Shown here one piece after another: positions 12,441 to 33,410 of a stretch of 64,000 nt of DNA (within the stretch, counting starts at the first letter, position 1; every line of letters begins with the position of its first letter). This DNA comes from a virus (Duplodnaviria > Heunggongvirae > Uroviricota > Caudoviricetes). The stretch lies in IMG/VR virus record IMGVR_UViG_3300042398_001452. The stretch is one strand, 5' to 3'. The notes under the pieces were generated by a model. It saw only the letters and a list, made by a program, of their open reading frames with translations, was not told the DNA's origin and made no database searches. The position numbers and the translations under genes are program-made.

Positions 12441-12482
12441 AATCATTTTTATTTCTGTAGAATAATCTATACTTTAGCCTAG
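12441..12482 (+). promoter_or_regulatory. EPM copy
   Basis: Upstream of the 12504 ORF. Confidence 0.55.
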
Positions 12483-12503
12483 TTAATCAATCAAATAAAA
12501 ACA

Positions 12504-12866: not shown

Positions 12867-12884
12867 GAACTCAACAAAAAACAG

Positions 12885-12908
12885 AAGCCAGCAATGCTGG
12901 CTTTTTTT
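12885..12908 (+). terminator. rho-independent terminator
   Basis: AGCCAGCA-ATGC-TGGCT plus T7. Confidence 0.7.
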
Positions 12909-12938
12909 GTGCAACAAACCTAGGCCAGCATGATTCAC

Positions 12939-12953
12939 CTGAGGCTCCCCAGG
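12939..12953. repeat. PAL copy
   Basis: CTGAGGCTCCCCAGG within the extended element. Confidence 0.55.
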
Positions 12954-12976
12954 CTAGGAATCAAGAAAGATTCAGA

Positions 12977-13018
12977 AATCATTTTTTTGTTTGTGGAAAA
13001 ATCTATATATTAGCTATG
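12977..13018 (+). promoter_or_regulatory. EPM copy
   Basis: Upstream of the 13042 ORF. Confidence 0.6.
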
Positions 13019-13041
13019 TTAATCAATTAAAACACTAGCTT

Positions 13042-13197
13042 ATGTACTCTTTAGATTGTGACTATTACACAAAACAATTTTCATCCATCGATGAACTTCT
13101 AACAGATATTGTATTATCTGGTATGGACCCGAACTATGTAATAACATATAATGGTGTTACTATAGGATATCAAGCTATTGAACTAATACAATTTTAA
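13042..13197 (+). CDS. possible 51-aa protein
   Basis: ATG placed after EPM copy 12977. Next EPM copy follows immediately at 13200. Confidence 0.35.
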   Translation: MYSLDCDYYTKQFSSIDELLTDIVLSGMDPNYVITYNGVTIGYQAIELIQF

Positions 13198-13199
13198 GA

Positions 13200-13240
13200 A
13201 ATCATTTTTTTAATCAAATAGAATTTTCTACATTTACATT
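13200..13240 (+). promoter_or_regulatory. EPM copy
   Basis: Upstream of the 13256 ORF. Confidence 0.55.
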
Positions 13241-13255
13241 ATAAAACAAAATCAC

Positions 13256-13483
13256 ATGATACTCTTTATAACAATTTTCATCTTAGCTCTCCTGGTCCCC
13301 GTAATCACACAGACAGTAGGAATTGACCAATCCACAAATCAATATAAGGAGAGCTACATCGCGGAGGTGGGTGCCACCAGTTACTTTACCCTACCTCGAG
13401 GACAGCCCAAGTCACGGGCTTCTATTATAACAAACAAATCACTCCCACGCAACAAGGGAGAGCCCAAAGAAAACTCAAGTTAA
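13256..13483 (+). CDS. hypothetical protein with N-terminal transmembrane segment (75 aa)
   Basis: Track ORF with EPM upstream. Confidence 0.45.
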   Translation: MILFITIFILALLVPVITQTVGIDQSTNQYKESYIAEVGATSYFTLPRGQPKSRASIITNKSLPRNKGEPKENSS

Positions 13484-13487
13484 AAAA

Positions 13488-13512
13488 AAGACTCCACAAG
13501 GGTCTTTTTTTG
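13488..13512 (+). terminator. rho-independent terminator
   Basis: AGACTC-CACAA-GGGTCT (imperfect) plus T7. Confidence 0.6.
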
Positions 13513-13548
13513 TGGACCAAGTTTTTCAAATAGCATATGCTAGATTCT

Positions 13549-13564
13549 CTGAGGAACCACAGAG
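13549..13564. repeat. PAL copy (degenerate)
   Basis: CTGAGGAACCACAGAG. Confidence 0.45.
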
Positions 13565-13606
13565 AATCATTTTTTTATTTGTGGAAAAATCTTTATATTT
13601 GGATAT
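13565..13606 (+). promoter_or_regulatory. EPM copy
   Basis: Upstream of the 13634 ORF. Confidence 0.55.
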
Positions 13607-13633
13607 ATAAGTATAAATAAATAAAAAATTAAA

Positions 13634-14137
13634 ATGAAACACATTAAATTATTTGAGGGATTCATGAAGAATCCAAATCCTTATAAGGACATAACAGAAA
13701 GAGGTGAGTCTGTTTTCTTATTCCACGAAGAAGATTCTATTTGGTTTGGAATATTTCCAGATAATGTTGCGGAGGATCTTAAATATGCTTCTGAAGATTA
13801 TATGAAACATGCAATATCTAAAGGTTTAGGAGAGGAATATTACGATGTTTTTGTTGACCGAAGAGAAGGACTAGCTTATGTTGAATGGGAAGGTAAAAAT
13901 GGATGGAATGCTTGTACCCCAGGAGAAATTGATGTAAACGATTATAATTATGTTATGATGCCAGATGGAACTGAAATAGAAATTAATCCATCTGCTAAAT
14001 ATTCATCTCTTCCTTTATTTGCTTTAGAAAGAGGAATGATAACACACTATCAAGGAAACCACGGTAATGAACCTATGACTGTTCGAGAATACATGGATCA
14101 TTTAGAAAGTGGAAAATCAGATTGGTATTCTATGTAA
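13634..14137 (+). CDS. leader-family protein (N-terminus MKHIKLFEGF), 167 aa
   Basis: Carries the conserved N-terminal decapeptide shared by 17 proteins in this window. EPM upstream. Confidence 0.65.
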   Translation: MKHIKLFEGFMKNPNPYKDITERGESVFLFHEEDSIWFGIFPDNVAEDLKYASEDYMKHAISKGLGEEYYDVFVDRREGLAYVEWEGKNGWNACTPGEIDVNDYNYVMMPDGTEIEINPSAKYSSLPLFALERGMITHYQGNHGNEPMTVREYMDHLESGKSDWYSM

Positions 14138-14157
14138 GAAATAAAATATATCTAAAA

Positions 14158-14182
14158 AAAGACCCTACAAGGGTCTTTTTTT
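14158..14182 (+). terminator. rho-independent terminator
   Basis: AGACCC-TACAA-GGGTCT plus T8. Confidence 0.75.
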
Positions 14183-14222
14183 ATGCTCCAAGGTTTACAG
14201 TAAACAGTCTACTGTAAACCAA

Positions 14223-14237
14223 CTGAGGAACCTCAGG
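14223..14237. repeat. PAL copy
   Basis: CTGAGGAACCTCAGG, where both arms changed (G to A with C to T) and the palindrome is preserved. Confidence 0.65.
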
Positions 14238-14287
14238 AAAATAGATGTAGAGAAGGATTACATCTATAACTACATCTATAACTATAG

Positions 14288-14333
14288 CGGGCTCCCCCGG
14301 GGGACGCGTGCGTACGTGTGCACGCGTAGGCAC
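14288..14333. repeat. GCH copy 4
   Basis: GGGCTCCCCCGGGGGACGCGTGCGTACGTGTGCACGCGTAGGCAC carries a perfect 8-bp hairpin ACGCGTGC-gtacgtgt-GCACGCGT. 5' of EPM 14345. Confidence 0.6.
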
Positions 14334-14344
14334 TTTTTTTCAGA

Positions 14345-14388
14345 AATCATTTTTTTATTTGTAGAAAATTCCATACATTAGCTATGTT
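14345..14388 (+). promoter_or_regulatory. EPM copy
   Basis: Upstream of the 14409 ORF. Confidence 0.6.
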
Positions 14389-14408
14389 AATCAATTAAAT
14401 ATATACAA

Positions 14409-14543
14409 ATGGAAAGAACAATCAATTTTATCGCTTGGAGCCTTATCACTGTTTTAGCTTCACTTACAATCTATGGTATACTTTACGCAGCTATACAGAT
14501 AGTTATAGGTAATGTACATTCAACAGCAAGCTTTGAATTTTAA
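14409..14543 (+). CDS. possible 44-aa membrane peptide
   Basis: ATG immediately after EPM copy 14345. Hydrophobic. Confidence 0.3.
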   Translation: MERTINFIAWSLITVLASLTIYGILYAAIQIVIGNVHSTASFEF

Positions 14544-14547
14544 AAAA

Positions 14548-14709
14548 AATGAAAACTGTAATAACAAAATCACAACTTCTTAAGATAGAATCCGGGAGAG
14601 TCAGAGAAGACCAGAAAGCCCAAGGTTTCTTCGATGGAAGATTTGTTACAAGAGCTCAAGATTCAAAAAAGAAATACTCCCGCAAGGAGAAGCACAAGGG
14701 CATCAACTA
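14548..14709 (+). CDS. possible 53-aa basic peptide
   Basis: Small ORF between the preceding peptide and the terminator at 14730. Confidence 0.3.
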
Positions 14710-14729
14710 AGAAACAAAACCCTATCTAC

Positions 14730-14757
14730 CCCTTGTCCGTTCGGACAGGGGTTTTTT
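14730..14757 (+). terminator. rho-independent terminator
   Basis: CCTTGTCCG-TTCG-GACAGGGG plus T6. Confidence 0.7.
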
Positions 14758-14786
14758 GTGCGAATCCAAAATCCCTCTTAATCATC

Positions 14787-14802
14787 CTGGGGTTCCGCCG
14801 AG
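14787..14802. repeat. PAL copy (degenerate)
   Basis: CTGGGGTTCCGCCGAG. Confidence 0.4.
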
Positions 14803-14872
14803 TGGATTCAAAGAATCAGACCTCCTGAGATACCCCGAAAACTTTTTTCAAAAAAAATCAGAAATCATTTTT

Positions 14873-14914
14873 TTATTTGTAGAAAATTCTATATTTTAGC
14901 TAAGTTAATCAATT
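14873..14914 (+). promoter_or_regulatory. EPM copy
   Basis: Upstream of the 14929 ORF. Confidence 0.6.
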
Positions 14915-14928
14915 AAACAATATCAATT

Positions 14929-15249
14929 ATGAAAAAGGAAATGACAATGGAACAAAAAGCAAAAAAAGCAGCAGCGAACAAAGCTTACCGTGAGCGTAAG
15001 AAAAACCAAGCGGCAACTCCGAATTGGATGGAATTGGATAAGTTCGAAATGAGTTTCACTCACAAAATTCGACTTTTCAAAAACCTCAAATTGGAAATCA
15101 CAAATTCCTACTGCGCTTCCCCTGGTACAGTTTTGAGATTTGAAAAAATTAAAAACGAAGATAATAAAATTATCTTTCGAGTACGCCGCACCGGTCGTCG
15201 CACCTTCTTCACCACCTCGACTAACCTACACGCACCAGTCGAGGCGTGA
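14929..15249 (+). CDS. member C of the 4-copy basic-protein paralog family
   Basis: MKKEMTMEQKAKKAAANKAYRERKK...RVRRTGRRTFFTT. EPM upstream. Confidence 0.7.
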   Translation: MKKEMTMEQKAKKAAANKAYRERKKNQAATPNWMELDKFEMSFTHKIRLFKNLKLEITNSYCASPGTVLRFEKIKNEDNKIIFRVRRTGRRTFFTTSTNLHAPVEA

Positions 15250-15273
15250 TCGGGGTGGATGTAAAAAACCCAC

Positions 15274-15297
15274 GGGAATCTTCGGATTCCCTTTTTT
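15274..15297 (+). terminator. rho-independent terminator (paralogous hairpin GGGAATC-TTCG-GATTCCC)
   Basis: Hairpin plus T6. Same hairpin family as those at 15576 and 16604. Confidence 0.7.
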
Positions 15298-15310
15298 ACA
15301 TCCAAGCCCA

Positions 15311-15325
15311 CTGCGGTTCCGCAGG
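15311..15325. repeat. PAL copy
   Basis: CTGCGGTTCCGCAGG, where both arms changed (G to C with C to G) and the palindrome is preserved. Confidence 0.65.
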
Positions 15326-15357
15326 GAGACAGAAATTATTTTAAATAAAAATTCGAA

Positions 15358-15401
15358 AATCATTTTTTTATTTGTAGAAAATTCTATATATTAGCTATGT
15401 T
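15358..15401 (+). promoter_or_regulatory. EPM copy (exact consensus)
   Basis: Upstream of the 15422 ORF. Confidence 0.6.
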
Positions 15402-15421
15402 AATCAATCAAATAAAAACAT

Positions 15422-15571
15422 ATGAAATCAGAAACAAAAAAGAAATTAGAATTTCTAAAATCATTAGGATTGTCAGAAAATGAAATTAGTGAATTATTAG
15501 ATTCCCAATTCATCCTCGACCAATCCCAAGAATTTAAAAGGGAGGAAATTGAAGAAGAAGAAGAGTTTTAA
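15422..15571 (+). CDS. possible 49-aa acidic peptide
   Basis: ATG right after EPM copy 15358. Terminator at 15576. Confidence 0.35.
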   Translation: MKSETKKKLEFLKSLGLSENEISELLDSQFILDQSQEFKREEIEEEEEF

Positions 15572-15575
15572 AATT

Positions 15576-15600
15576 GGGGAATCTCCGGATTCCCTTTTTA
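15576..15600 (+). terminator. rho-independent terminator (GGGGAATC-TCCG-GATTCCC)
   Basis: Hairpin plus T5. Confidence 0.65.
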
Positions 15601-15613
15601 ATTTATATACCCT

Positions 15614-15630
15614 CTGCGGAACCCCAGAGG
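15614..15630. repeat. PAL copy
   Basis: CTGCGGAACCCCAGAGG. Confidence 0.55.
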
Positions 15631-15673
15631 GGCTCCATGGGGGACGCGTGCGTACGTGCGCCCGCGTAGAGGG
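15631..15673. repeat. GCH copy 5
   Basis: GGCTCCATGGGGGACGCGTGCGTACGTGCGCCCGCGTAGAGGG, 5' of EPM 15684. Confidence 0.55.
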
Positions 15674-15683
15674 TTTTTTCAGA

Positions 15684-15724
15684 AATCATTTTTTTATCTT
15701 CCCTAGATTTATTATATTTACACT
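15684..15724 (+). promoter_or_regulatory. EPM copy (degenerate)
   Basis: Abuts ATG 15725. Confidence 0.45.
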
Positions 15725-15928
15725 ATGTCACTAACACCACAACAATTAAAAGCTAATGCAGACTTCTTTAATAATGTAGCTGCAATGACCAAGATGTATG
15801 TGTGGCCTGATACTGGCCACATTTATAAAATAGAAGAAGGGATCTTTATCTGTGACTCCCCGGAATCATTTAATGATTTAAAAGATAACACTCCAGAAAC
15901 TTTCCATTATAAAATCAAAATGAAATAA
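15725..15928 (+). CDS. hypothetical protein (67 aa)
   Basis: Track ORF with EPM upstream. Confidence 0.5.
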   Translation: MSLTPQQLKANADFFNNVAAMTKMYVWPDTGHIYKIEEGIFICDSPESFNDLKDNTPETFHYKIKMK

Positions 15929-15981
15929 AATAAATCCTTATATTTGTATTATACATTTAAATTTTATTCCCATAAAATTTG

Positions 15982-16010
15982 AACCCTAGAAGAAATTCTA
16001 GGGTTTTTTT
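15982..16010 (+). terminator. rho-independent terminator
   Basis: AACCCTAGA-AGAAAT-TCTAGGGTT plus T7. Confidence 0.75.
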
Positions 16011-16072
16011 GTGTAATCAAAATACAAGCATATAGTAAGACACCGGAGTTTCCTCGATAGATCTTATACCCC

Positions 16073-16090
16073 ATAGCGGAACCCCAGGGG
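16073..16090. repeat. PAL copy (first of a 3-copy cluster)
   Basis: ATAGCGGAACCCCAGGGG. Confidence 0.55.
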
Positions 16091-16119
16091 ATAAAAAAAA
16101 ATTAAATATATAAAACCCC

Positions 16120-16134
16120 CTGCGGAACCCCCAG
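16120..16134. repeat. PAL copy (cluster)
   Basis: CTGCGGAACCCCCAG. Confidence 0.55.
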
Positions 16135-16156
16135 TTAAAATTTTAAAAAATACCTT

Positions 16157-16176
16157 GGAAGGTTCCGCAGGGAACC
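16157..16176. repeat. PAL-related palindrome in shifted register (cluster)
   Basis: GGAAGGTTCCGCAGGGAACC contains GGTTCC-gcag-GGAACC. Confidence 0.5.
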
Positions 16177-16215
16177 ATTAAAATAAATTTTTAGAAATTT
16201 CCACTTTTTTCCAAG

Positions 16216-16258
16216 AATCATTTTTTTGTTTGTAGAAAAATCCATATATTAGCTATGT
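16216..16258 (+). promoter_or_regulatory. EPM copy
   Basis: Upstream of the 16281 ORF. Confidence 0.6.
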
Positions 16259-16280
16259 TAATCAATTAAACAAAAACAAA

Positions 16281-16583
16281 ATGAAAAAGGAAACAGTAAA
16301 AAAACCAGTTGCTAAAAAATCAGTTAAAAATTCTAACACTCCAGAATGGTTAAATCTGGAAAAGTTTGAAATGAGTTTTGAACATAAAATCAGACTTTTT
16401 AGAAATCTGAAACTTGAAACTACAAACTCCTACTGTGCAACTCCGGGTACTCCTCTTAAATTTGAAAAAATTAAAAATGAGGATAACAAGATTGTTTATC
16501 GAGTTCGCCGCAACGGTCGTAGAACTTTCTTTACAACTTGCGACCATTTGAAAAATCAAGTTGAAACAATACCCGCGGAATAA
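16281..16583 (+). CDS. member D of the 4-copy basic-protein paralog family
   Basis: ...WLNLEKFEMSFEHKIRLFRNLKLE...RVRRNGRRTFFTT. EPM upstream. Confidence 0.7.
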   Translation: MKKETVKKPVAKKSVKNSNTPEWLNLEKFEMSFEHKIRLFRNLKLETTNSYCATPGTPLKFEKIKNEDNKIVYRVRRNGRRTFFTTCDHLKNQVETIPAE

Positions 16584-16603
16584 TCGGGTTTACAAAAAAT
16601 AAA

Positions 16604-16628
16604 GGGGGAATCTCCGGATTCCCTTTTT
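16604..16628 (+). terminator. rho-independent terminator (GGGGGAATC-TCCG-GATTCCC)
   Basis: Hairpin plus T5. Confidence 0.65.
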
Positions 16629-16641
16629 AATAAAAATTTCT

Positions 16642-16656
16642 CTGCGGAACCCCAGG
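16642..16656. repeat. PAL copy
   Basis: CTGCGGAACCCCAGG. Confidence 0.6.
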
Positions 16657-16680
16657 AACACTGATCAGAAAAGATTCAGA

Positions 16681-16722
16681 AATCATTTTTTTTATTTGGA
16701 AAAATCTATTATATTAGCTATG
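16681..16722 (+). promoter_or_regulatory. EPM copy
   Basis: Upstream of the 16741 ORF. Confidence 0.55.
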
Positions 16723-16740
16723 TAATCAAACTAAGAACAA

Positions 16741-16947
16741 ATGGACATTTTAGAAGTTTTCAAATCTATAAAACAAAGTAGAAAAAATCTTAAAGATTTA
16801 GAAGCCCAAGTGATTCTTTTATGGGGAGATCTCTATTGGCTTAATAGTGATTTTCAAAGTAGTAATGAAGCTGCTATGATGGAAAAGATTAGTACAGATA
16901 TTCAATATGATTTACAAAAATATAATTCATTTATTTCATTAAACTAG
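16741..16947 (+). CDS. hypothetical protein (68 aa)
   Basis: Track ORF with EPM upstream. Confidence 0.5.
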   Translation: MDILEVFKSIKQSRKNLKDLEAQVILLWGDLYWLNSDFQSSNEAAMMEKISTDIQYDLQKYNSFISLN

Positions 16948-17003
16948 AAAATAAATTCTTATATTTGTAGTTCATAAAATATTTATTCTTGGAATAAACA
17001 CTA

Positions 17004-17032
17004 AACCCTAGATTGATCATCTAGGGTTTTTT
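17004..17032 (+). terminator. rho-independent terminator
   Basis: AACCCTAGAT-TGATC-ATCTAGGGTT plus T6. Confidence 0.75.
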
Positions 17033-17065
17033 GTGTGTAAAAAAAATCTATACTATATGATTCCC

Positions 17066-17080
17066 CTGCGGCACCCCAAC
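17066..17080. repeat. PAL copy (CTGCGGCACCCC subtype)
   Basis: CTGCGGCACCCCAAC. Confidence 0.5.
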
Positions 17081-17122
17081 GAGATTTTTTATGTATTTAA
17101 TTTTTATATACTATTTTTACAT

Positions 17123-17137
17123 TGGGGGAACCGCAGG
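17123..17137. repeat. PAL copy
   Basis: TGGGGGAACCGCAGG. Confidence 0.5.
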
Positions 17138-17161
17138 AAGACTAATAAGAAAAGATTTAGA

Positions 17162-17205
17162 AATCATTTTTTTATATGTAGAAAAATCCATATATTTATA
17201 TAATC
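17162..17205 (+). promoter_or_regulatory. EPM copy with no ORF downstream (ATG-TAA immediately, then a terminator)
   Basis: The motif is intact. The downstream 17222..17297 region ends in a hairpin plus T-run. Confidence 0.5.
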
Positions 17206-17266
17206 AATAAAACAAAAAGAAATGTAATATTATCATTTAAAAAATAAAATCCCCAATCCCCCAATG

Positions 17267-17296
17267 GAAGAGTTGTATAACTCTTCTTTTTTTTGT
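17267..17296 (+). terminator. rho-independent terminator closing the ORF-less transcript from EPM 17162
   Basis: GAAGAGTT-GTAT-AACTCTTC plus T8. Confidence 0.65.
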
Positions 17297-17323
17297 GGAA
17301 AATTTTAAAACTATTTAAGCTCC

Positions 17324-17337
17324 CTGAGGAACCCCAC
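17324..17337. repeat. PAL copy
   Basis: CTGAGGAACCCCAC. Confidence 0.5.
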
Positions 17338-17417
17338 ATAAAAATTGTAGAGTATAATAGTAAAGTAATAGTAAGAATAGTAAGTAATAGTAGTAAAAAT
17401 GTATTACCATAATTCCT

Positions 17418-17432
17418 CTGCGGCACCCCAGG
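17418..17432. repeat. PAL copy (CTGCGGCACCCCAGG subtype)
   Basis: CTGCGGCACCCCAGG. Confidence 0.6.
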
Positions 17433-17462
17433 GTGGTAAATATATAATTAACTATTTTCAGA

Positions 17463-17505
17463 AATCATTTTTTTATATGTAGTATAATCCATATATTTAC
17501 TTAAT
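17463..17505 (+). promoter_or_regulatory. EPM copy
   Basis: Upstream of the 17519 ORF. Confidence 0.55.
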
Positions 17506-17518
17506 CAATCATTCAAAC

Positions 17519-17755
17519 ATGGCATCATCTAAAACATCTTCAAGCATTAGTATCACAACAGTACTATTTCTGATATTCCTAACTCTTAAACTAACTAACC
17601 TCATAGCATGGTCTTGGTGGTGGGTCACAGCTCCTTTATGGATACCTGTATTACTAGCAATAGCTATTATAGTGATAGCTGCATCAGTAATCATTATTGC
17701 ATTTGCTCTAGGATTCTCCGGAGATGACATTAAAAGAAGAATAAGAAGAAATTAA
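17519..17755 (+). CDS. hypothetical membrane protein (78 aa)
   Basis: Track ORF with EPM upstream. Hydrophobic W-rich core. Confidence 0.5.
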   Translation: MASSKTSSSISITTVLFLIFLTLKLTNLIAWSWWWVTAPLWIPVLLAIAIIVIAASVIIIAFALGFSGDDIKRRIRRN

Positions 17756-17771
17756 CTTAACACACAATATA

Positions 17772-18008
17772 ATGGAAAATCAAACAAAAGTAGATTATCT
17801 AAAAACACTCTTTACTGTAACAGAAGTACAAGATGAAGGATGTAGCTTTGAAGCTCCCGACTGCTATGAAGCATATATCTTATTTGAAGACTTTCAAGTA
17901 GGGGACACCGCGAATGATATATGTAGTGCTTCAGAATACTACTCATGCTGTGGAGACGTATTAGACAAAGACTATATGATGTGTCCAACTTGCTACGAAC
18001 ATTGCTAA
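17772..18008 (+). CDS. hypothetical Cys-rich protein (78 aa)
   Basis: Track ORF. CxxC...CC...CPTC cysteines. Terminator at 18041. Confidence 0.5.
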   Translation: MENQTKVDYLKTLFTVTEVQDEGCSFEAPDCYEAYILFEDFQVGDTANDICSASEYYSCCGDVLDKDYMMCPTCYEHC

Positions 18009-18040
18009 TTTCATAGTTCATAGATTAACAAAAAAAGAGA

Positions 18041-18062
18041 GGAGCTTTATGCTCCTTTTTTT
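18041..18062 (+). terminator. rho-independent terminator
   Basis: GGAGC-TTTAT-GCTCC plus T7. Confidence 0.7.
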
Positions 18063-18081
18063 ATGCACATCTCTTTTCCCT

Positions 18082-18096
18082 CTGCGGCACCCCAGG
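18082..18096. repeat. PAL copy (CTGCGGCACCCCAGG subtype)
   Basis: CTGCGGCACCCCAGG. Confidence 0.6.
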
Positions 18097-18128
18097 GAAT
18101 ACAATTAATATAATTAATTATTTTCAGA

Positions 18129-18172
18129 AATCATTTTTTTATTCGTGGAAAAATCCATATATTTATATAGTT
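18129..18172 (+). promoter_or_regulatory. EPM copy
   Basis: Upstream of the 18193 ORF. Confidence 0.55.
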
Positions 18173-19746: not shown

Positions 19747-20862
19747 ATGAAACACCTTAAGTTATTTGAAGATTTTAATCCTTATGAGTATGAGCTTCCT
19801 AATTTCAGGGTAAGCCTAGTAAGTTCGGGCATGACTAACGGTAAATACCTTTTTAGCCTAGTTGATGGAGACGCCAATTCTTATTGGGGGATTTTCGATT
19901 TGGAAGGTCTTAAAGTCCTAGAGGATGAGATGAACACCATATGTGTCTTAGAAGAATTATTCAATGCTATAGCATACAACAAAAAAAATGATCCTGTTGT
20001 GTGGGCTACGAAAAAATGGACTAAACTTGTTATCAATAAGGTTCCAGAAGATTCTAAGCTTATTGTTCTTCTGAATAAGCTTGTGGTTGATAAAGACATA
20101 ATGGCGGATTGGGGGATTAGAAAAAATCTTAATATCTTAGGTGCTTTTCACGAATACATTGCAGATGTTGTCTCTGACGAGAATGAAATTCCAGAAGTTG
20201 ATTTTGGATTTTCGAAGGACGAGGGCATAATAATCGTTCCCGCTGAGGTGAACACTTTATACCATGAAGGAAACCATCTAGGAAGCTTCGATGACACCAC
20301 AGGGAAAATCATTAAAGACAAGAGAGATGAAAATTACTTTGCCATTGATTATGAAAACCCTTTAATGGTTAAACACGATAATAATTACACAGATCCTAAA
20401 TTCTGGAATGCTCCTCCTGATAACAAAGAATGGATTACTACCCCTATAAATTTTGATGACATAGAGCCTTATATGCCATCCATCATAGAAGGAGGAGCTC
20501 CTAAAGCATTTTTAAAGGTCATAGAAAAGTATAAGGGCATAAGAGACAGAAAGCCAACCATAAGAAAAATACCAACATTCATCGAAGGGGTTGAGAAGGG
20601 ACTTCTTAGGGATTATGGAAATGATTTAGAATTTAAGAAATTCCTAGAAGAGACCGATTACATTCAATTGGTGGACCAGATAGAGAAAGAAGAGACTAAA
20701 TTACGAAGAGAAAGATCACCGGAGAAATTATTGATCCTCAAATCCATATTGGATAAAAAAGAGGTGCTTATTAATTCATGGGAAGATAGACTTCCTATTG
20801 ACTTTATTAAAATGGAGAGAAGCGGTCTGGGTATAACCAGATTTAATTACGGTCTTAAATAG
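19747..20862 (+). CDS. leader-family protein (MKHLKLFEDF), 371 aa
   Basis: Track ORF. Leader decapeptide at N-terminus. C-terminus ..GITRFNYGLK loosely resembles the shared ..RF tail. Confidence 0.7.
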   Translation: MKHLKLFEDFNPYEYELPNFRVSLVSSGMTNGKYLFSLVDGDANSYWGIFDLEGLKVLEDEMNTICVLEELFNAIAYNKKNDPVVWATKKWTKLVINKVPEDSKLIVLLNKLVVDKDIMADWGIRKNLNILGAFHEYIADVVSDENEIPEVDFGFSKDEGIIIVPAEVNTLYHEGNHLGSFDDTTGKIIKDKRDENYFAIDYENPLMVKHDNNYTDPKFWNAPPDNKEWITTPINFDDIEPYMPSIIEGGAPKAFLKVIEKYKGIRDRKPTIRKIPTFIEGVEKGLLRDYGNDLEFKKFLEETDYIQLVDQIEKEETKLRRERSPEKLLILKSILDKKEVLINSWEDRLPIDFIKMERSGLGITRFNYGLK

Positions 20863-20986
20863 ATTATTTTAATGACTATGCTGAAAAGAGTCCCTATGGA
20901 CCTTGAACACTGGATGCTTTGATTCTCTTTAGGATGTGCATATGGTTAGCCTAGATATAATGGATATATAATATAAAACAAAAGAG

Positions 20987-21487
20987 ATGGCATTATTTGA
21001 CACTTTTCAAGGAGGTACAATCGTATATTATCTTCAGCCGGGTGATCCTGGATTCACTGCACCAGATACTAATGGATTAATAGTTTATCCGCAATTATTA
21101 GGAACAGCAGAATGGGGTTGTTATGGTACACAGTTAGATGTTTTCGGTACTGCTTTAGGAACTGGGAGTGCTAACACTGCTAGTATAGTAGCTGGATGTA
21201 CTCAAGCTGGTACAGCTGCAAAGATATGTTCAGATTTAAATGTTGGTGGATATTCAGATTGGTATCTTCCTTCTAAGGATGAATTAAACAAAGTTTATCT
21301 TGTTCAGTCTAGTCTTTCTTTCTTAAACATCACTGCTGGTTATTGGAGTTCTTCTGAGACTGCAGTTGATGTAAACTTTACTGTTCTGAACACTGCTTAT
21401 GCTCAGTTATTTGCTCAGACTTCAAATTCACAGGTTTCCACTAGTAAGTCGAATCCTTATTATGTTATTGCAATGAGATCGTTCTAA
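20987..21487 (+). CDS. hypothetical protein, DUF1566-like (W-x-LP-x-x-x-EL) motif
   Basis: GYSDWYLPSKDELNKVY resembles the conserved core of DUF1566-type domains. Ends ..NPYYVIAMRSF, similar to the tails of 21490 and 47622. Confidence 0.5.
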   Translation: MALFDTFQGGTIVYYLQPGDPGFTAPDTNGLIVYPQLLGTAEWGCYGTQLDVFGTALGTGSANTASIVAGCTQAGTAAKICSDLNVGGYSDWYLPSKDELNKVYLVQSSLSFLNITAGYWSSSETAVDVNFTVLNTAYAQLFAQTSNSQVSTSKSNPYYVIAMRSF

Positions 21488-21489
21488 TA

Positions 21490-21864
21490 ATGAAGAGTTT
21501 CAAGTGTGGGTTTATTGAGGTGATGGATCACGATTACTATAAGAATCAGAGGCAACGTGGAAGTATTCATATGAATTGGAATGATTATATTCATAATGGA
21601 TGGGATCCTTTTTTAAAATCTTTGAAAGAGGACGGATGGAGAGCTCCTTACATACAGGAGATCAAATATCTTTATAGTCTACACCTTATGAACATTGGAG
21701 CTTTTAGTTACGAGCTTCCTCCTTATAGTTATTATATAACAGAGCCTTATAGGAGAACTACTTGGAATGACAAATGTAGTTTTTTCGATTTTCATAATGG
21801 TAGGCTTTCTAATGATGTTGGTGATAAGTCGCTAGGTCATCTCAGATTAGTTAGAAATATATAG
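21490..21864 (+). CDS. hypothetical protein (124 aa), paralog of 47622..47948
   Basis: GWRAPYIQEIKYLY and terminal HLRLVRNI match GWRLPYESEFLTIY and YYVRLVRNI of the 47622 ORF. Confidence 0.55.
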   Translation: MKSFKCGFIEVMDHDYYKNQRQRGSIHMNWNDYIHNGWDPFLKSLKEDGWRAPYIQEIKYLYSLHLMNIGAFSYELPPYSYYITEPYRRTTWNDKCSFFDFHNGRLSNDVGDKSLGHLRLVRNI

Positions 21865-21867
21865 ATA

Positions 21868-22380
21868 ATGACTTACTTTGTTAATCTATTACAAACATCT
21901 TACGGACAGGCTGGAAGATACTACTCATATCGTTTATATTCAGGAGAATCTGTTGAGGATATAAAAATGAATATACTTAATGGTATAAAAGATGAGTGGG
22001 GTGATTATATAGATGGATTTGAAAGAAATCTTGATATTATAAGTGATAAGCCTTTGAAAGATTTAGTTACCAGAATCAATGATTTAATACAGGATTATAT
22101 GGATGAGGACTATGGAGATATAACAGATTATGATTTGATTTTAGATGATCCTTATACAGATCTTGGTAAGTCTTTTGATTTTTATAGTGACTATCTTGAA
22201 TTATTGGAGGGGGATATTGAAGACTACGAAGATGCTAGCTTTTATTTCTATGGAGATTATGCTATAAAAATACAGGATGTATTTCCCATTCTTTCAGATA
22301 TTAGAGATGAGTATAACGTGAGTATTCCTACTGGATATGCTGAGAAGATGTCTAGATATTTATTTGGGGCATATAATTAA
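21868..22380 (+). CDS. hypothetical acidic protein (170 aa), paralog of 26573..27094
   Basis: YSGESVEDIKMNILNGIKDEWGDY and DDPYTDLGKSFDFYSDYLELL match YSGEDIERIKSEIVEDIKDEWENEF and SDEPYTDIRQAIDFYFEYLSI. Confidence 0.6.
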   Translation: MTYFVNLLQTSYGQAGRYYSYRLYSGESVEDIKMNILNGIKDEWGDYIDGFERNLDIISDKPLKDLVTRINDLIQDYMDEDYGDITDYDLILDDPYTDLGKSFDFYSDYLELLEGDIEDYEDASFYFYGDYAIKIQDVFPILSDIRDEYNVSIPTGYAEKMSRYLFGAYN

Positions 22381-22381
22381 G

Positions 22382-22420
22382 AATCATTTTTTTTATCTCT
22401 TTGAATTTTCTATCTTTGGT
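22382..22420 (+). promoter_or_regulatory. EPM copy outside the early block
   Basis: AATCATTTTTTTTATCTCTTTGAATTTTCTATCTTTGG before ATG 22433. Confidence 0.45.
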
Positions 22421-22432
22421 AAAAACAGAGAT

Positions 22433-22780
22433 ATGGCTTTAAATTATGATCTTAATGAGATAAAGGGGTTTAAAAGACTTTACGAGAAATCTATTGAAAC
22501 TAGCGGATTTAAAATCAAAGATATCCCTCAGACTATTATACTTAGCACTATGAGTGTGGGTATGAGGGAAATCACCAAAGACAATTACATTAAATTCTAC
22601 AATCGTCTCAGTCTACTTGAGAATGTTTATGGACCTATCTTCTATGTGAGAAAGAGAGGTAAGATGATTCCTCGCCCTATTAAATTAGAAGAAGTCGAGC
22701 GTATGATTGGGTTGAAGACTAATGCTTCAGAGATTTCAAGAACTAAATTTATGTCGAGAATCGATAAGGATAAATTTTAA
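22433..22780 (+). CDS. hypothetical protein (about 115 aa; track ORF 22337..22780 trimmed to the ATG after the EPM copy)
   Basis: EPM copy 22382 ends just before ATG 22433. Confidence 0.5.
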   Translation: MALNYDLNEIKGFKRLYEKSIETSGFKIKDIPQTIILSTMSVGMREITKDNYIKFYNRLSLLENVYGPIFYVRKRGKMIPRPIKLEEVERMIGLKTNASEISRTKFMSRIDKDKF

Positions 22781-22830
22781 AATCCTTTTTTTAATCAGAA
22801 ATAGGTTTCTAACTTAGCAAAAAAATCAAG

Positions 22831-23172
22831 ATGAAAAATAAACAAGCACGGGTGCTTAACGCAATCCCAGAGAACATGACACTAACTGAATATTTTGACT
22901 CATTAGATGTCTTCGAAAAAAGAGAGTTGATTGACGAGCTAAAATACATGGGGGATGTTTATTCTAAGAATTTCACTAGAAATATCATTCTTGCAGTGGT
23001 ATCTTGGTTGTGTTCATTCTTGTGTTACTTCGGAGTTCAAGAAACTTGGTTCATTTACTACTTAATTTTGATCAATGTGCCTTTAACTATTTTCTTATGG
23101 TTGAATATTCGAAACTACACCAATTATAGTGGGGTTGCTAAGCATTTAGAAAAACGAATGAGAGAACAATAA
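22831..23172 (+). CDS. hypothetical membrane protein (113 aa)
   Basis: Track ORF with two hydrophobic segments. Confidence 0.55.
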   Translation: MKNKQARVLNAIPENMTLTEYFDSLDVFEKRELIDELKYMGDVYSKNFTRNIILAVVSWLCSFLCYFGVQETWFIYYLILINVPLTIFLWLNIRNYTNYSGVAKHLEKRMREQ

Positions 23173-23182
23173 AAATAGCATA

Positions 23183-23401
23183 ATGGTAAAAAGAGGATTA
23201 TCTGGAATTTACTTCCGAGCAAAAAACGAAGAGACTGGAAAATTTGAGAATTTTGTATTTGAGGACTTGTCCGAAGAGAAACAAGATGAAATGATGAATG
23301 GAAGGTCTGAAGAGTGGCTAAAGAGCTTAGCTAAGCAATTAGCAAGCACACTACGGGCTATTGGTGATCAATTTGATATTGCAGTTGGATCAGATGAGTA
23401 A
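23183..23401 (+). CDS. hypothetical protein (72 aa)
   Basis: Track ORF. Confidence 0.5.
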   Translation: MVKRGLSGIYFRAKNEETGKFENFVFEDLSEEKQDEMMNGRSEEWLKSLAKQLASTLRAIGDQFDIAVGSDE

Positions 23402-23445
23402 TTTAACGGAACTTTTGGTTACTTTTGTATATATAATAAAATAAT

Positions 23446-23866
23446 GGGCCCGCTTTGGATTTGACAGGCGGAGGTAGTTCTTTGAAATGATGCAGGCAGG
23501 GTTAGATTGGAAATCCTTAATCACCTATCGAACAATAAACGCAAACGTTTACAACACCGAGGATATCATGAGTATCCCAACTTCTCTTACTCGCGTAGCG
23601 GTAGCAGAGGAGGCTGAGTTGCTAATGGCAGCTTAACCGGCGGGCCGCACCGGCCTAGGAACAGAAAGGTGATGGTGGAGTCTGGTCTTACCTTAAAGAC
23701 CGAAACGGAAATTCGGCTCATACCGAAGAGTACACAGACTGAGCATTAAGTTTGTAATAAAAGAAATGCAAAAAAGTTTGTCCGTGTCGAACAACGGACT
23801 AAGCCTGTGAATGAGTTTCCTGAGCATTCGATCTGGACGAGGGTTCGACTCCCTCCGGGTCCACCA
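23446..23866 (+). ncRNA. ssrA: tmRNA (transfer-messenger RNA), about 421 nt, with encoded CCA
   Basis: 5' end GGGCCCGCUUUGGAUUUGACAGG resembles the canonical tmRNA 5' end GGGGCUGAUUCUGGAUUCGACGGG. The 3' end has T-arm GAGGGUUCGACUCCCUC and acceptor CGGGUCC-ACCA pairing with the 5' GGGCCCG. An internal reading frame ends with TAA at 23634-23636 (..AEEAELLMAA) followed by a GC hairpin, as in tmRNA tag regions. A terminator follows the CCA. Confidence 0.75.
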
Positions 23867-23870
23867 AAAA

Positions 23871-23900
23871 TAAATCCCACTCTTATAGGGTGGGATTTTT
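23871..23900. terminator. bidirectional terminator between tmRNA and the convergent GGCT gene
   Basis: AAATCCCAC-TCTTATAG-GGTGGGATTT with an A-run on the left and a T-run on the right. Confidence 0.7.
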
Positions 23901-24335
23901 ATTGATTATTGATGTCAACATCTTTTGGTAATCTGGTGAAAGTAATGATGATCCTTCTATCAAGAATTTCATGTAATCGTCAGTGGGTTTAAGACCTTCT
24001 ACTATGTAATCGTTCTGAGCTATGTACGTTATACATTCTATTTTATTACCACATGAGCTCACATTAATTTTTTCTCTTCTATAATGTACAGGAGCTCCCT
24101 CGAATTTATCTAGTTTTTCAAGGTGTGACTCTCTTATTTCAAAGATTATTCCTTCTACTGCATCTCCTTCGCTTTCTTCTATGTTTGCAAAAGACCAATC
24201 ACCTTTAGAAGATTTTTTATTGAATTTTAATACATAATTATTAAGAATTCCTTGAGTTCTAGAAAGTGGTGTTACTCCCCTTTTTATCATTCTAGTAACA
24301 CTCATATTAGATCCATATGCAAAATATTTTATCAT
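23883..24335 (-). CDS. gamma-glutamyl cyclotransferase (GGCT/AIG2)-like protein, 150 aa
   Basis: N-terminal YFAYGSNM and downstream GxxxEGxxVxGxxFE..LDxxEG pattern typical of the GGCT/AIG2 fold. Confidence 0.65.
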   Translation of the reverse strand: MIKYFAYGSNMSVTRMIKRGVTPLSRTQGILNNYVLKFNKKSSKGDWSFANIEESEGDAVEGIIFEIRESHLEKLDKFEGAPVHYRREKINVSSCGNKIECITYIAQNDYIVEGLKPTDDYMKFLIEGSSLLSPDYQKMLTSIINKNPTL

Positions 24336-24388
24336 TCTAATTATTAATCTTATAAAATATATATAATAAAGAAAATTAATAGATTAAA

Positions 24389-24898
24389 TTGGAAGATAAG
24401 GTTTATGCTATATTAAAATTAGAGGTAGAGAGTTCGTATCAAATGGTATATCTTTATTTCTATTGTTATGTTGCTAATAGTGAGGAAGATATAGTTAAGA
24501 ATTTCAGAGACGATCTTTATTCCTATTTTGACAGGATACCTAGGGGATTAAGTAAAATATCAGATTTTAAGGAAAAGCTTGGCTCCTATAATTATGATCT
24601 TAATGAAGAGACAGGAGATGTAGAGTTAATTGATTTTAAAATATATTCAGATCCTTTGGAGTTTTACATAGATATGAAGGGGTGCTGGACGATTGAGAAA
24701 AATCCAGAAGAAACAAAAAATGAAAGGGACCTTGAGGATATAAATTTCATCTATAGAGATCTAACAGTTAATGATGATTATAATACAGCTAGAGTTATTA
24801 TGGTTAGGGATTTAGCCGATAATATATTCCAGTATAATATGGATTTTATGACCGAGTATCGTGTATCTTACGATCCTTATAAAATCCCCTCTAAATAG
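24389..24898 (+). CDS. hypothetical protein (169 aa)
   Basis: Track ORF. Confidence 0.55.
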   Translation: MEDKVYAILKLEVESSYQMVYLYFYCYVANSEEDIVKNFRDDLYSYFDRIPRGLSKISDFKEKLGSYNYDLNEETGDVELIDFKIYSDPLEFYIDMKGCWTIEKNPEETKNERDLEDINFIYRDLTVNDDYNTARVIMVRDLADNIFQYNMDFMTEYRVSYDPYKIPSK

Positions 24899-25490
24899 AT
24901 TTCAATCTATCTATTGGAAATTTATCAACAGAATATTTAGTTATAATAGCATTAGAGATATTTAGTCCTAATTCGTTATATATGTCTGTGATGTCTGTGG
25001 TTTTTGTGATAATCATTCCAGATTCTTGTGCTTTCTTCATTATGAAGTGATTGTATATTCTAGATCTTCTATCATCGCCTAGTGATTCTGATTTTGCAAC
25101 CACTATAATAGATATTAAGTTTCCGCCTTTACTTCTCTCTTTAGCCCATTCCTTTACCGCCCACCACACACTGCCCATAACATCTTGCATATTGTTTCTT
25201 CCTGTGAGCGAGTCTGAGTATTCTGTATCGGACGGATCAGCTTTAGACGAGAAATGTATTTCTAGAGTTACTGTGTTGTCTTCCCATCTTCTTACCAGAA
25301 TAAAAACTTTATATGGAGCTCCGTCTATTTCAAATTCATAGGTCATATCTTCATCCCTTGCTGGAATTTTGTTTATAACCTTGATGTCTGGGATTGTGTC
25401 CCACATCTCATTAAGAAACTGGTAGTATTTAAGAATTGATCTCATTCTTTTTATATATCGTTGTTTTTGATATATAGATATATGAAACAT
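24891..25490 (-). CDS. hypothetical protein (199 aa; alternative start at 25445 gives 184 aa)
   Basis: Track ORF on the minus strand, convergent with 24389..24898. Confidence 0.55.
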   Translation of the reverse strand: MFHISIYQKQRYIKRMRSILKYYQFLNEMWDTIPDIKVINKIPARDEDMTYEFEIDGAPYKVFILVRRWEDNTVTLEIHFSSKADPSDTEYSDSLTGRNNMQDVMGSVWWAVKEWAKERSKGGNLISIIVVAKSESLGDDRRSRIYNHFIMKKAQESGMIITKTTDITDIYNELGLNISNAIITKYSVDKFPIDRLKSI

Positions 25491-26555
25491 ATTAAATATT
25501 TCTCTGAGATCAATGAATCTAAAGAAGAATCAACAGAGATATTAGATTTTATAAAATCTTCACCAGAGGGTATTGATCTTTCTAGAATAAACGACAGGGG
25601 TACAGATATAAACAATATGTTTGAATTAGTAAGAACAGGGAGGGTATATTGTATTGGATTTGGCTCTAAAACTTATATAGATAAAAATCACAATGGAAAT
25701 TATTGCTGGCAAAGCCTATCTAACGGTAAGATATTTGCTCAAGAGTGCTATTCCACACTAAAAGAATGTATTAGAGAATTTTTTGTTACTGTGGTAAGTA
25801 GACAAATATCAGGAATGTATGGGGTTAAAAAGGAGGAAATGAGAAACTGGGTTTCTTCTAATATTCCTGTCGGTATGGGATTAACTATGTCTGATATAAT
25901 AGAAAAATATAAGGAATTAGAGGGAAAGAAAAAAGTGGATTTCTTAGAACTTTCTAAGGATAGTAGGGCTTTAAATATTATTGTTAATGCTTTTGGTGGA
26001 ATATTTGAAAAGCAACCTTATGATTATGACAGATATGACGAATACACATTAACTTTTAATATTTTTAAACCATTTGGGTTAGATATATGCGAATATGGTG
26101 ATAGAGCAAGACCTATTAGTGTCGTTATTAGAGCTGGTATGAAGGGAAAAAATAGCATTAAATCAGATTGGCACGGTGAGATTGTAAGTTTAGGAGATCA
26201 TGATACCGCTTTAAAATATTTCGATACTTCCTTACCTAAACTTCTAATTAATAAGTTATCAGGTAATAATAATAATGGGTATGGTTATTATATTCAGGGA
26301 GTAGATAATCTTTGTCCAGAATTATTGGAGTTGGTAAAATATATTTTTAGGGGAGATTATGATGTTAATAATAATCTTTCAGATATACTGGATTCATATC
26401 TTTCTAAAATTAAAACAAAAAATCCTATAATTTTTTCATCAGCAATACAATCATTAGAATCTAGTGGTAAATTCCCGGAATTGGTTGATAAGTATATTAA
26501 AAGCGATAAAGCTACTATCAAAGCAGGATCTATTTTAAAAAGATTTGAGCTTTAA
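25482..26555 (+). CDS. leader-family protein (MKHIKYFSEI) with shared C-terminal module (..SAIQSLESSGKFPELVDKYIK..KAGSILKRFEL), 358 aa
   Basis: Track ORF 25461..26555 trimmed to the ATG that begins the leader. The C-terminal about 40 aa align with 9030, 29417 and 31305 ORFs. Confidence 0.7.
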   Translation: MKHIKYFSEINESKEESTEILDFIKSSPEGIDLSRINDRGTDINNMFELVRTGRVYCIGFGSKTYIDKNHNGNYCWQSLSNGKIFAQECYSTLKECIREFFVTVVSRQISGMYGVKKEEMRNWVSSNIPVGMGLTMSDIIEKYKELEGKKKVDFLELSKDSRALNIIVNAFGGIFEKQPYDYDRYDEYTLTFNIFKPFGLDICEYGDRARPISVVIRAGMKGKNSIKSDWHGEIVSLGDHDTALKYFDTSLPKLLINKLSGNNNNGYGYYIQGVDNLCPELLELVKYIFRGDYDVNNNLSDILDSYLSKIKTKNPIIFSSAIQSLESSGKFPELVDKYIKSDKATIKAGSILKRFEL

Positions 26556-32837: not shown

Positions 32838-33410
32838 ATGGTAAGATTATTAAAATTTGAATCTTTTCTAAATGAATCATCAAATTCTGTGATAGATCTA
32901 GTTAAGGATTTAGCTATAAGATTACATGGAGATCAGAAGAGAAAATATAGCGGTGATCCTTATTACACACATCTCTTTAGAGTTTCCGATACTGTTAGAG
33001 AATACGGAGGCGATGATTCTATGATTATGGCAGCCTTGTTACACGATGTTATAGAAGATACACCAACAACAGACGAGGAGCTTATCTTAGAATTAGAAAC
33101 AATAGTAGATCCACAAATGGCTAGGGACATTGTTAATTTAGTTGTTGAATTAACTGATGTGTATACGAAGGAAAATTTTCCAGATTTAAACAGAAGAGCT
33201 AGAAAAGAAATGGAAGCCAAAAGACTTGGAGAGATTTCTTCTAGAGCACAAACTATAAAATATGCAGATCTTTTAGATAACGGTGAGGATATAATGAAGA
33301 ATGATCCCTCGTTTGGTAGGGTTTATATCAAGGAGAAAGAAAGAATACTTAATTATATGAACTTTGGCGATAGGACATTATATAATAAGTGCTTGGATTC
33401 AATATATTAG
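32838..33410 (+). CDS. HD-domain (p)ppGpp-hydrolase-like protein (small alarmone hydrolase-like) with leader MVRLLKFESF, 190 aa
   Basis: LHGDQKRKYSGDPYYTHLFRVSDTV...MIMAALLHDVIEDT matches the Rel/SpoT HD hydrolase core (H..Q.R.SG.PY..H...VA......D....AALLHDv.EDT). Confidence 0.75.
   Translation: MVRLLKFESFLNESSNSVIDLVKDLAIRLHGDQKRKYSGDPYYTHLFRVSDTVREYGGDDSMIMAALLHDVIEDTPTTDEELILELETIVDPQMARDIVNLVVELTDVYTKENFPDLNRRARKEMEAKRLGEISSRAQTIKYADLLDNGEDIMKNDPSFGRVYIKEKERILNYMNFGDRTLYNKCLDSIY

Follow-up and report, generated by a model that had tools for sequence, protein, structure and literature searches.

A transfer-messenger RNA gene family with a long, conserved tag reading frame in large uncultivated phages

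Analysis of a 64,000-nucleotide (nt) stretch of viral DNA, IMG/VR record IMGVR_UViG_3300042398_001452 (the whole stretch is referred to here as the window), reveals a single gene for transfer-messenger RNA (tmRNA). ARAGORN places it at 23446-23866 on the plus strand as a one-piece ssrA of 421 nt with the terminal CCA encoded, and the Rfam model RF00023 matches at identical coordinates over its whole length (positions 1-374 of 374), with 92.7 bits against a gathering score of 47 (E = 8.4e-35). A sequence-only reading of the same DNA had proposed a tmRNA gene here, and the two programs concur with it to the nucleotide; the end strings that it quoted (GGGCCCGCTTTGGATTTGAC, GGGTTCGACTCCC and GGTCCACCA) were all located in the sequence, and the ARAGORN and covariance-model check that it had suggested fixes the resume codon at 23541, with a score well over threshold. 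The 5′ 23-mer and the 3′ 26-mer of the gene occur once each in the window when up to 3 mismatches are allowed (0 expected, from 100 shuffles), and the window holds no second copy of the 5′ or the 3′ end. The gene has a G+C content of 48% within a window of 33%, its fold beats all 100 shuffles (z = -3.1), and an Rfam scan of the window found no riboswitch or further Rfam family besides the tmRNA.

The features of the locus are as follows.

23408-23437, plus strand: promoter-like element, read from the sequence, made up of GGAACTTTT, TACTTTTG and TATAAT (23432-23437)
23446-23452 with 23856-23862, plus strand: acceptor stem, GGGCCCG / CGGGTCC, with a G·U third pair
23498-23529, plus strand: pseudoknot 1 (PK1; H-type), AGGGUU/AAUCCU and GAUUGG/CCUAUC, identified by inspection of the sequence and the Rfam alignment
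23541-23636, plus strand: tag frame of 31 codons, from the resume codon GCA to TAA at 23634-23636 (ARAGORN and Rfam alignment)
23561-23577, plus strand: hairpin inside the tag frame, GGAUAU-CAUGA-GUAUCC (codons D-I-M-S-I), predicted with RNAalifold
23612-23633, plus strand: helix 5, GGCUG...CAGCU, with 97.5% of cells paired in the family and G·U/G-C and C-G/U·G exchanges
23839-23855, plus strand: T-arm, GAGGG-UUCGACU-CCCUC, its stem pairs invariant in the family; ACCA, the discriminator A with CCA, is then encoded
23872-23898, plus strand: terminator-like hairpin, a 12-pair stem followed by a T-run, 6 nt past the CCA and conserved in relatives
23883-24335, minus strand: AIG2/gamma-glutamyl-cyclotransferase-like protein of 150 residues (Pfam GGACT, 3.4e-14), convergent with the tmRNA

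Relatives of this tmRNA in IMG/VR were found through the neighboring GGACT-like protein and through the 5′ motif GGGCCCGNNNNGGATTTGACAGG. The motif retrieved 19 IMG/VR and 52 JGI metagenome stretches, and after removal of chance matches and truncated copies there are at least 24 distinct full-length alignable sequences of 418-491 nt, the window's included, which we call family A. Among 241 million metagenome records the motif, the one second search pattern used, retrieved only family A and a sister tmRNA family, both in viral-type contexts, and family A is carried by viral contigs of 207, 248, 250 and 290 kb and by a 238-kb metagenome contig. An exact 32-mer from the tag region has no match in IMG/VR, the relatives there differing in the tag, and neither blastn with 701 nt nor megablast with 20 kb found a nucleotide relative among 50,697 deposited phage records. 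The more distant members of family A are flanked by phage proteins that have no detectable similarity to those of the window, and the genes around them include Gp23, a head protease, DNA polymerases, an RNA ligase and homing endonucleases.

The structure of the RNA is well preserved in this family. Over ten named helices in the 24 members, 96.4% of cells are paired and 15 pairs have changed on both sides, whereas sliding the 3′ partners by 1-3 columns as a control leaves at most 53% paired and at most 5 doubly changed pairs. The acceptor stem, the T-arm and the one hairpin in the tag frame never vary. Between the window's tmRNA and that of a 207-kb relative there are 14 substitutions in 419 nt, located in loops, at wobble-compatible positions or in the tag, in contrast to the adjacent protein, which is only 87% identical. 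Judged by these comparisons, the tmRNA is clearly under purifying selection.

The RNA resembles bacterial one-piece tmRNA (RF00023) in its tRNA-like domain with a G3·U pair, its T-arm and CCA, its PK1, its U at -5 and A at -4, its GCA resume codon, its helix 5 with an associated stop codon and its hydrophobic-Ala-Ala tag end. All 7 acceptor-stem pairs are invariant among 24 family sequences, with pair 3 a G·U throughout; G3·U70 is the alanine identity element recognised by alanyl-tRNA synthetase (AlaRS). PK1 stem 1 is AGUCUU/AAGACU in the 490-nt members, two of its pairs having changed on both sides, and 11 nt separate the end of PK1 from the GCA at 23541, where the preceding AAUAAAC supplies the U at -5 and the A at -4. 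The corresponding distance in E. coli is 12 nt, and U85/A86 at the same two positions set the frame (PMC2481249). The stop codon lies directly 3′ of helix 5, unlike in bacterial tmRNA, where it lies in the helix 5 loop. In the region of pseudoknots 2 to 4 the Rfam alignment is of low confidence, compensatory changes back several hairpins (helices 5-8), and the 490-nt members carry about 70 extra nt. The CCA encoded in the window is unencoded in several relatives (..GGGTCCACT; loci L119 and L120, and many family members), whose RNAs would require CCA addition.

The TATAAT of the promoter-like element ends 8 nt ahead of the mature 5′ G, and an element of the form GAAAYTTTT..TAYTTT(G/A)..TATATAAT is retained in relatives with differing upstream genes; we therefore regard the tmRNA as probably its own small transcription unit, with a predicted promoter function for the element. 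The terminator-like hairpin is common to the tmRNA and the convergent gene. A Bacteroidota -33/-7 promoter was considered and rejected: TACTTTTG fits the -7 box, but there is no TTTG at the proper distance.

The tag reading frame has several distinctive properties. ARAGORN gives the tag as ANVYNTEDIMSIPTSLTRVAVAEEAELLMAA*, encoded by positions 96-191 of the gene, and family tags were read from the aligned resume position rather than from ARAGORN calls. First, the frame is open in all 23 distinct nucleotide versions, which specify 20 different peptides with lengths of 29, 31, 32 or 35 residues; every version begins with GCA or GGC, and the three classes of indel in the frame (-6, +3 and +12 nt) are each in frame. 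Second, the tag is long, as the sequence-only reading had suspected: it has 31 residues, near the upper end of the 8-35 reported for tags (PMC8012679), and the long frame is conserved across the family. Third, the peptides share the consensus [AG][NK][VT][YI]N-x-ED[IM]MSIPTS[LIV]T ... EE[AV]E[LMF][LA][LMVI]AA, and the C-termini are [LA][LMVI]AA with the exception of one variant, AVAV. The same reading had taken the ..LMAA ending to be non-canonical, which was an overstatement: near-identical sister strains have ..LLAA, and bacterial tmRNAs with the same T-arm and acceptor end in ..YAMAA or ..YALAA, so that the usual hydrophobic-Ala-Ala C-terminus is kept. The LLAA/LMAA difference is a G-to-A change, which converts U·G to U-A in an alternative helix-5 register (recognised by eye; the helix count used another register).

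The tag frame also contains conserved RNA structure. All 6 pairs of the hairpin at 23561-23577 are invariant in the family, and the hairpin is present in the single-sequence fold too. The block GAGGAUAU(C/G)AUGAGUAUCC does not vary at all, third codon positions included, in a tag that varies elsewhere, and a CUUC/GAAG helix that follows the hairpin closes a segment of variable length, its innermost pair flipping from U-A to A-U between sub-clades by means of synonymous third positions. By this comparative evidence the tag region is constrained both as RNA and as reading frame, and its unusual features are the tag length, the conserved ED(I/M)MSIPTS core and the invariant hairpin within the frame. 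An internal start site in the tag (GAGGA-N6-AUG) seems unlikely; Shine-Dalgarno motifs are depleted genome-wide, and the GGA belongs to the conserved hairpin stem. When the window's proteins were searched for likeness to the tag, the one match was a weak one, NGEDIMKNDPSFGRV (33279-33350, in an HD-domain protein at 32838-33410), which is identical to the tag core NTEDIMSIPTSLTRV at 8 of 15 positions (E about 0.01-0.08) and is probably due to chance.

ARAGORN itself treats the family inconsistently, giving 31 residues in the 418-nt members, only the last nine in the 490-nt members and a different frame in a third group. The inconsistency is seen at family-A loci such as L134, L150 and L193, and one wrong-frame call reads AQTKESCWWSLTYP. 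Automated surveys of phage tmRNA tags will therefore misreport such tags.

The neighborhood of the gene is that of a phage. The window contains about 120 open reading frames (ORFs), almost all on the same strand and mostly without known homologues, the recognizable ones including a Dda-type helicase, HNH endonucleases and a DprA-like protein, and on both sides the tmRNA is flanked by AT-rich phage ORFs whose homologues are phage-only or absent. Throughout the window's sub-clade the GGACT-like gene accompanies the tmRNA. An identical GGACT-like protein is present on 16 metagenome contigs, and 8 of the 9 that were fetched have the tmRNA next to it, between phage ORFs whose order is in part shuffled among strains. 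IMG/VR viral contigs of 206,617 and 85,958 bp are syntenic with the window and have a GGACT-like protein 87% identical and the tmRNA, and a further contig, overlapping the last 11 kb of the window gene for gene, runs on into an endolysin, a T4-type Gp23-family capsid protein and a third sigma factor. No integrase was matched in the ten nearest flanking ORFs (19747-26555; Pfam and PHROGs), nor among the precomputed Pfam matches of the relatives' homologues further out, to about 29.9 kb. As had been proposed from sequence, the tmRNA is part of the phage and not a host attB remnant, both flanks being phage genes conserved in related contigs. The accompanying statement that genes of a repeated-leader family lie on both sides holds loosely: some 33 copies of the leader lie at 331-18130, the nearest to the tmRNA are at 22383 and 53435, and the tmRNA has its own upstream element.

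Several signals bear on the host. A 26-nt strand of the T-arm and acceptor, scanned in one genome per species (185,579 species), gave 83 matches, five of which are tmRNAs. Four come from metagenome-assembled genomes (MAGs) that bear a Bacteroidia or Bacteroidetes label; the fifth is labelled Saccharibacteria, and its tag is that of the Bacteroidia MAGs. At the 3′ end 26-35 nt of the phage tmRNA are identical or nearly so to Bacteroidota-labelled tmRNAs, and freshwater Bacteroidota MAGs have tmRNAs with exactly the same acceptor stem and T-arm. Beyond about 35 nt the phage RNA is unlike the retrieved bacterial tmRNAs, its middle not being alignable to them, and it is therefore not a recent capture; its 31-residue tag also differs from their tags, which have 9 residues (GENNYAMAA, GNNNYALAA). 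Shine-Dalgarno motifs are depleted, preceding 3 of 120 ORFs in the window compared with a 7.7% background. The repeated leader contains TAnnTT(T/A)G, which is the Bacteroidota -7 box, and three proteins with CHU_C type IX secretion domains are encoded near distant family-A members. These sequence signals make a member of the Bacteroidota the most likely host, and the titles of co-retrieved MAGs and the JGI id ranges suggest that the phage is a freshwater one. Aquatic jumbo phages named 'moraphages', with predicted Bacteroidota hosts, T4-like structural genes and sigma factors, have been described with tmRNA unmentioned (PMC12619734).

We therefore propose, with a probability of roughly 0.8, that the gene is a functional ssrA of a large virulent-type freshwater phage with T4-like capsid genes, a relative of at least 207 kb and most likely a Bacteroidota host. 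In such a scheme host AlaRS would charge the RNA with alanine through the invariant G3·U, and the charged tmRNA would bind host SmpB and EF-Tu and, in the course of infection, move into ribosomes that have stalled on mRNAs that are broken or lack a stop codon. Translation would continue from the GCA at 23541, adding alanine and the 31-residue tag ending L-M-A-A (32 residues in all); the freed ribosomes would serve phage protein synthesis, and host AAA+ proteases, whose recognition the C-terminus fits, would degrade the tagged truncated proteins. Predicted here from the established mechanism are charging, the recruitment of SmpB from the host, when the RNA is expressed, what the phage gains from it and which protease reads the tag. 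No SmpB-like ORF was found by tblastn or phmmer in the 64-kb window or the fetched phage loci (a positive control matched a bacterial locus), and SmpB is absent from the Pfam families listed, among the top 25; with no smpB in the window, the tmRNA probably relies on that of the host.

There are points that weigh against parts of this proposal. The window is an incomplete genome, so smpB could lie elsewhere in the phage, and huge phages can carry smpB (PMC7162821). A simple sigma-70 scan called no promoter upstream of the tmRNA. For the 490-nt members ARAGORN gives only the last 9 residues as the tag. Variable sites in the tag are distributed over the three codon positions as 11/10/18, a mild skew only, and selection on the core motif as peptide and as RNA is not cleanly separable, because the hairpin is invariant and the third positions are frozen. 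The host assignment comes from indirect signals, and the CHU_C proteins among them belong to distant relatives rather than to the window phage.

A phage ClpP-like protease had also been put forward as a possible reader of the tag. The gene does exist, at 56659-57231, and the protein has Ser, His and Asp residues that align with the ClpP catalytic residues. It falls below every NCBIfam cut-off (82 versus 249 bits for ClpP; 57 versus 120 for the ClpP-related head protease) and in the window 33 kb separate its gene from the tmRNA; at a related locus, L140, a homologue with 31% identity (5309-5875) lies 0.7 kb upstream of the tmRNA. A functional link between the tag and this protein is possible but unsupported.

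Other explanations of the locus differ in which part of the proposal they dispute. It could be argued that the real tag has only about 10 residues (AEEAELLMAA) and that translation resumes at a GCA 21 codons downstream, the long tag being an ARAGORN artefact over a structured spacer; the last 9-10 residues do resemble an ordinary tag by themselves, ARAGORN reports just EEVELAVAA or EEAEMLLAA for the 490-nt relatives, and conserved helices (the invariant hairpin and CUUC/GAAG) lie between the two candidate resume sites. We consider this improbable, and the long tag better supported, because the downstream site, preceded by GCGGUA, has neither U at -5 nor A at -4 and its codon varies (GCA, GCU, ACU, AGA), whereas the upstream codon is always GCA or GGC. 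The upstream site is moreover the one that the Rfam alignment sets at 23541 with high posterior probability, it lies 11 nt past PK1 with U-5/A-4 in every member, as the frame-setting rule has it (PMC2481249), and from it 23 of 23 versions are open, with all three indel classes multiples of three. That the gene is the host's ssrA, left as an attB remnant at the junction with a prophage or island, or else host DNA recently gained by imprecise excision, would fit with the fact that tmRNA genes are classic integration sites and that phages can carry ssrA fragments (discussed in PMC9004378), and also with the match of the 3′ 26-35 nt to Bacteroidota-labelled tmRNAs. It is nonetheless hardly credible here: the flanks are AT-rich phage ORFs with phage-only homologues or none, the locus is syntenic in many contigs, including the viral ones of 86 and 207 kb, and no integrase match lies within the ranges given above, on which grounds we reject it. 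Outside the T-arm and acceptor the RNA is unlike the bacterial tmRNAs retrieved by the 3′ pattern from the 185,579 species genomes, the 5′ motif yields only phage-context tmRNAs, from metagenomes, and the window has no partial second copy.

The remaining alternatives accept a phage gene and question its function. The RNA might be made but serve for something other than ribosome rescue, as a decoy that titrates the host's SmpB or blocks its trans-translation, or as a site where mobile introns land and recombination takes place. Mycobacteriophage DS6A has a tmRNA fragment consisting of the tRNA-like domain only, and such molecules can inhibit tmRNA (PMC4131195); in one family member the T-loop is interrupted by a group I intron, a 3′-truncated second copy is present on another contig, and gene order near the tmRNA is shuffled between strains. 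A decoy would need no intact PK1, no U-5/A-4, no in-frame tag with a hydrophobic-Ala-Ala end and no helix 5 stop, all of which are conserved, and this makes such a role quite improbable. A passenger gene that does nothing for the phage, whether decaying or neutral, is very improbable, even though most phages lack tmRNA and the more distant relatives L121-L130 have none beside their GGACT homologue; the tmRNA is far better conserved than its neighboring genes, shows compensatory base changes, and persists in phages whose flanking proteins are not detectably similar to those of the window.

Long Mycoplasma ssrA tags are reportedly read by Lon instead of ClpXP, according to work of Gur and Sauer in 2008. 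The family-A tags are like these in being far beyond the norm of about 10 residues and in having conserved positions spread along the tag, the pattern expected of recognition that reaches beyond the last three residues; they are unlike them in retaining the canonical hydrophobic-Ala-Ala end, and their internal conservation stems partly from RNA structure. The conserved ED(I/M)MSIPTS(L/I)T core, its hairpin or both might be a second recognition element, by which the tmRNA would behave unlike the host's, an idea that we think doubtful though deserving of mention. The core may act as a peptide handle for an adaptor or protease of the phage's choosing, the phage ClpP-like protein being one candidate, or the hairpin may be an RNA site that is bound by a phage or host factor and times the use of the tmRNA. 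If there is such an element, selection in a virus would act on tagging itself and not on ribosome release alone. The alphaproteobacterial Caulobacter tag AANDNFAEEFAVAA ends ..AEEFAVAA, and the last 8-10 residues of the family-A tags, (A/T)EE(A/V)E(L/F)(A/L)(V/L/M)AA, resemble it, which we note as a lead only; unlike Caulobacter-type tmRNA the phage RNA is one-piece with a Bacteroidota-type tRNA-like domain, and the likeness may be convergent.

Phage tmRNAs are already known, and it is this family that is previously undescribed. They are encoded by the mycobacteriophage Bxz1 group and Bacillus phage G (PMC4131195) and by huge phages, sometimes with SmpB (Al-Shayeb et al. 2020; PMC7162821), and they occur in 402 of 18,146 phage genomes, among which is that of the OM43 phage Melnitz with its two-piece tmRNA; at about 2.3% they are indeed uncommon, as the sequence-only reading had remarked (PMC9004378). 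Like the known examples, those of pelagimyophages among them, which usually show no evidence of integration, the window's tmRNA is a complete ssrA in a large lytic-type genome. It differs from the two-piece tmRNA of Melnitz and the pelagimyophages in being one-piece and not permuted, from some huge phages in that neither the 64-kb window nor the fetched loci pair it with smpB, from known phage tmRNAs in its conserved, long, family-specific tag, and from bacterial tmRNAs in being phage-encoded and in having two additional structures within the tag frame, an invariant hairpin and another helix. The role proposed for phage tmRNAs is that of sustaining the hijacked translation apparatus (PMC4131195, PMC7162821, PMC9004378). 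Why phages carry tmRNA is still unanswered, the literature offering suggestions only, and family A, widespread among large aquatic phages yet to be cultivated, offers a way into the question: the preservation of the long frame through in-frame indels, and of the RNA beyond that of its neighbors, suggests that the tag matters to the virus in addition to ribosome release. The Bacteroidota-type tRNA-like domain may also be usable as a host marker.

The sister family consists of tmRNAs of about 404 nt with the same 5′ motif, on viral contigs of up to 172 kb (loci L132, L135-L138, L141-L144, L153, L155, L169, L172, L186, L189, L191, L194 and L201). Its tags have 21 residues ending ..E(V/Q)VTVA (e.g. 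GNVLNKMETLGLLRGSEVTVA), a genuinely unusual C-terminus, and ARAGORN misses most of them. Within family A, the T-loop intron is a group I intron of about 230 nt, located at 7403-7633 on the minus strand of L171 between GAGGGUU and CGACUCCC, with 95.5 bits for Rfam RF00028 against a gathering score of 50; L166 has it likewise. The contig with the extra copy, L198, has two family-A 5′ halves 1.5 kb apart (1015 and 2490, plus strand); the first has a distinct 32-residue tag frame and no recognisable 3′ part, and the second copy is complete.

Other genes and repeats of the phage are of separate interest. The repeated leader mentioned above (the 'leader family' of the sequence-only reading) is an intergenic promoter/leader of about 50 nt, present in about 33 copies at 331-18130 on the plus strand and also at 22383, 53435 and 59446. 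Its motif is (A/G)AATCATTTTTTT-N8-12-TAGAA..TTCTA.ATT(A/T)GCTA.GTAA, each copy lies 40-65 nt ahead of the start codon of a small ORF, and the set resembles a family of promoters for early genes. At 5725-6597 and 41416-42279 the window encodes RpoD-like sigma-70 factors that have regions 1.2, 2, 3 and 4, the third being on the contig that overlaps the 3′ end of the window; the best phage match of these sigma factors is in the Microcystis jumbo phage MaAM05, at 42% identity. A PAS-PAS histidine kinase (60680-62305) is immediately followed by a response-regulator receiver protein (62298-62729), together a two-component pair. Finally, a deoxyhypusine/homospermidine-synthase-like protein is encoded at 50027-51007 (Pfam DS, 1.5e-41) and an S-adenosylmethionine decarboxylase ORF is also within the window, and the phage therefore carries polyamine-related auxiliary genes.

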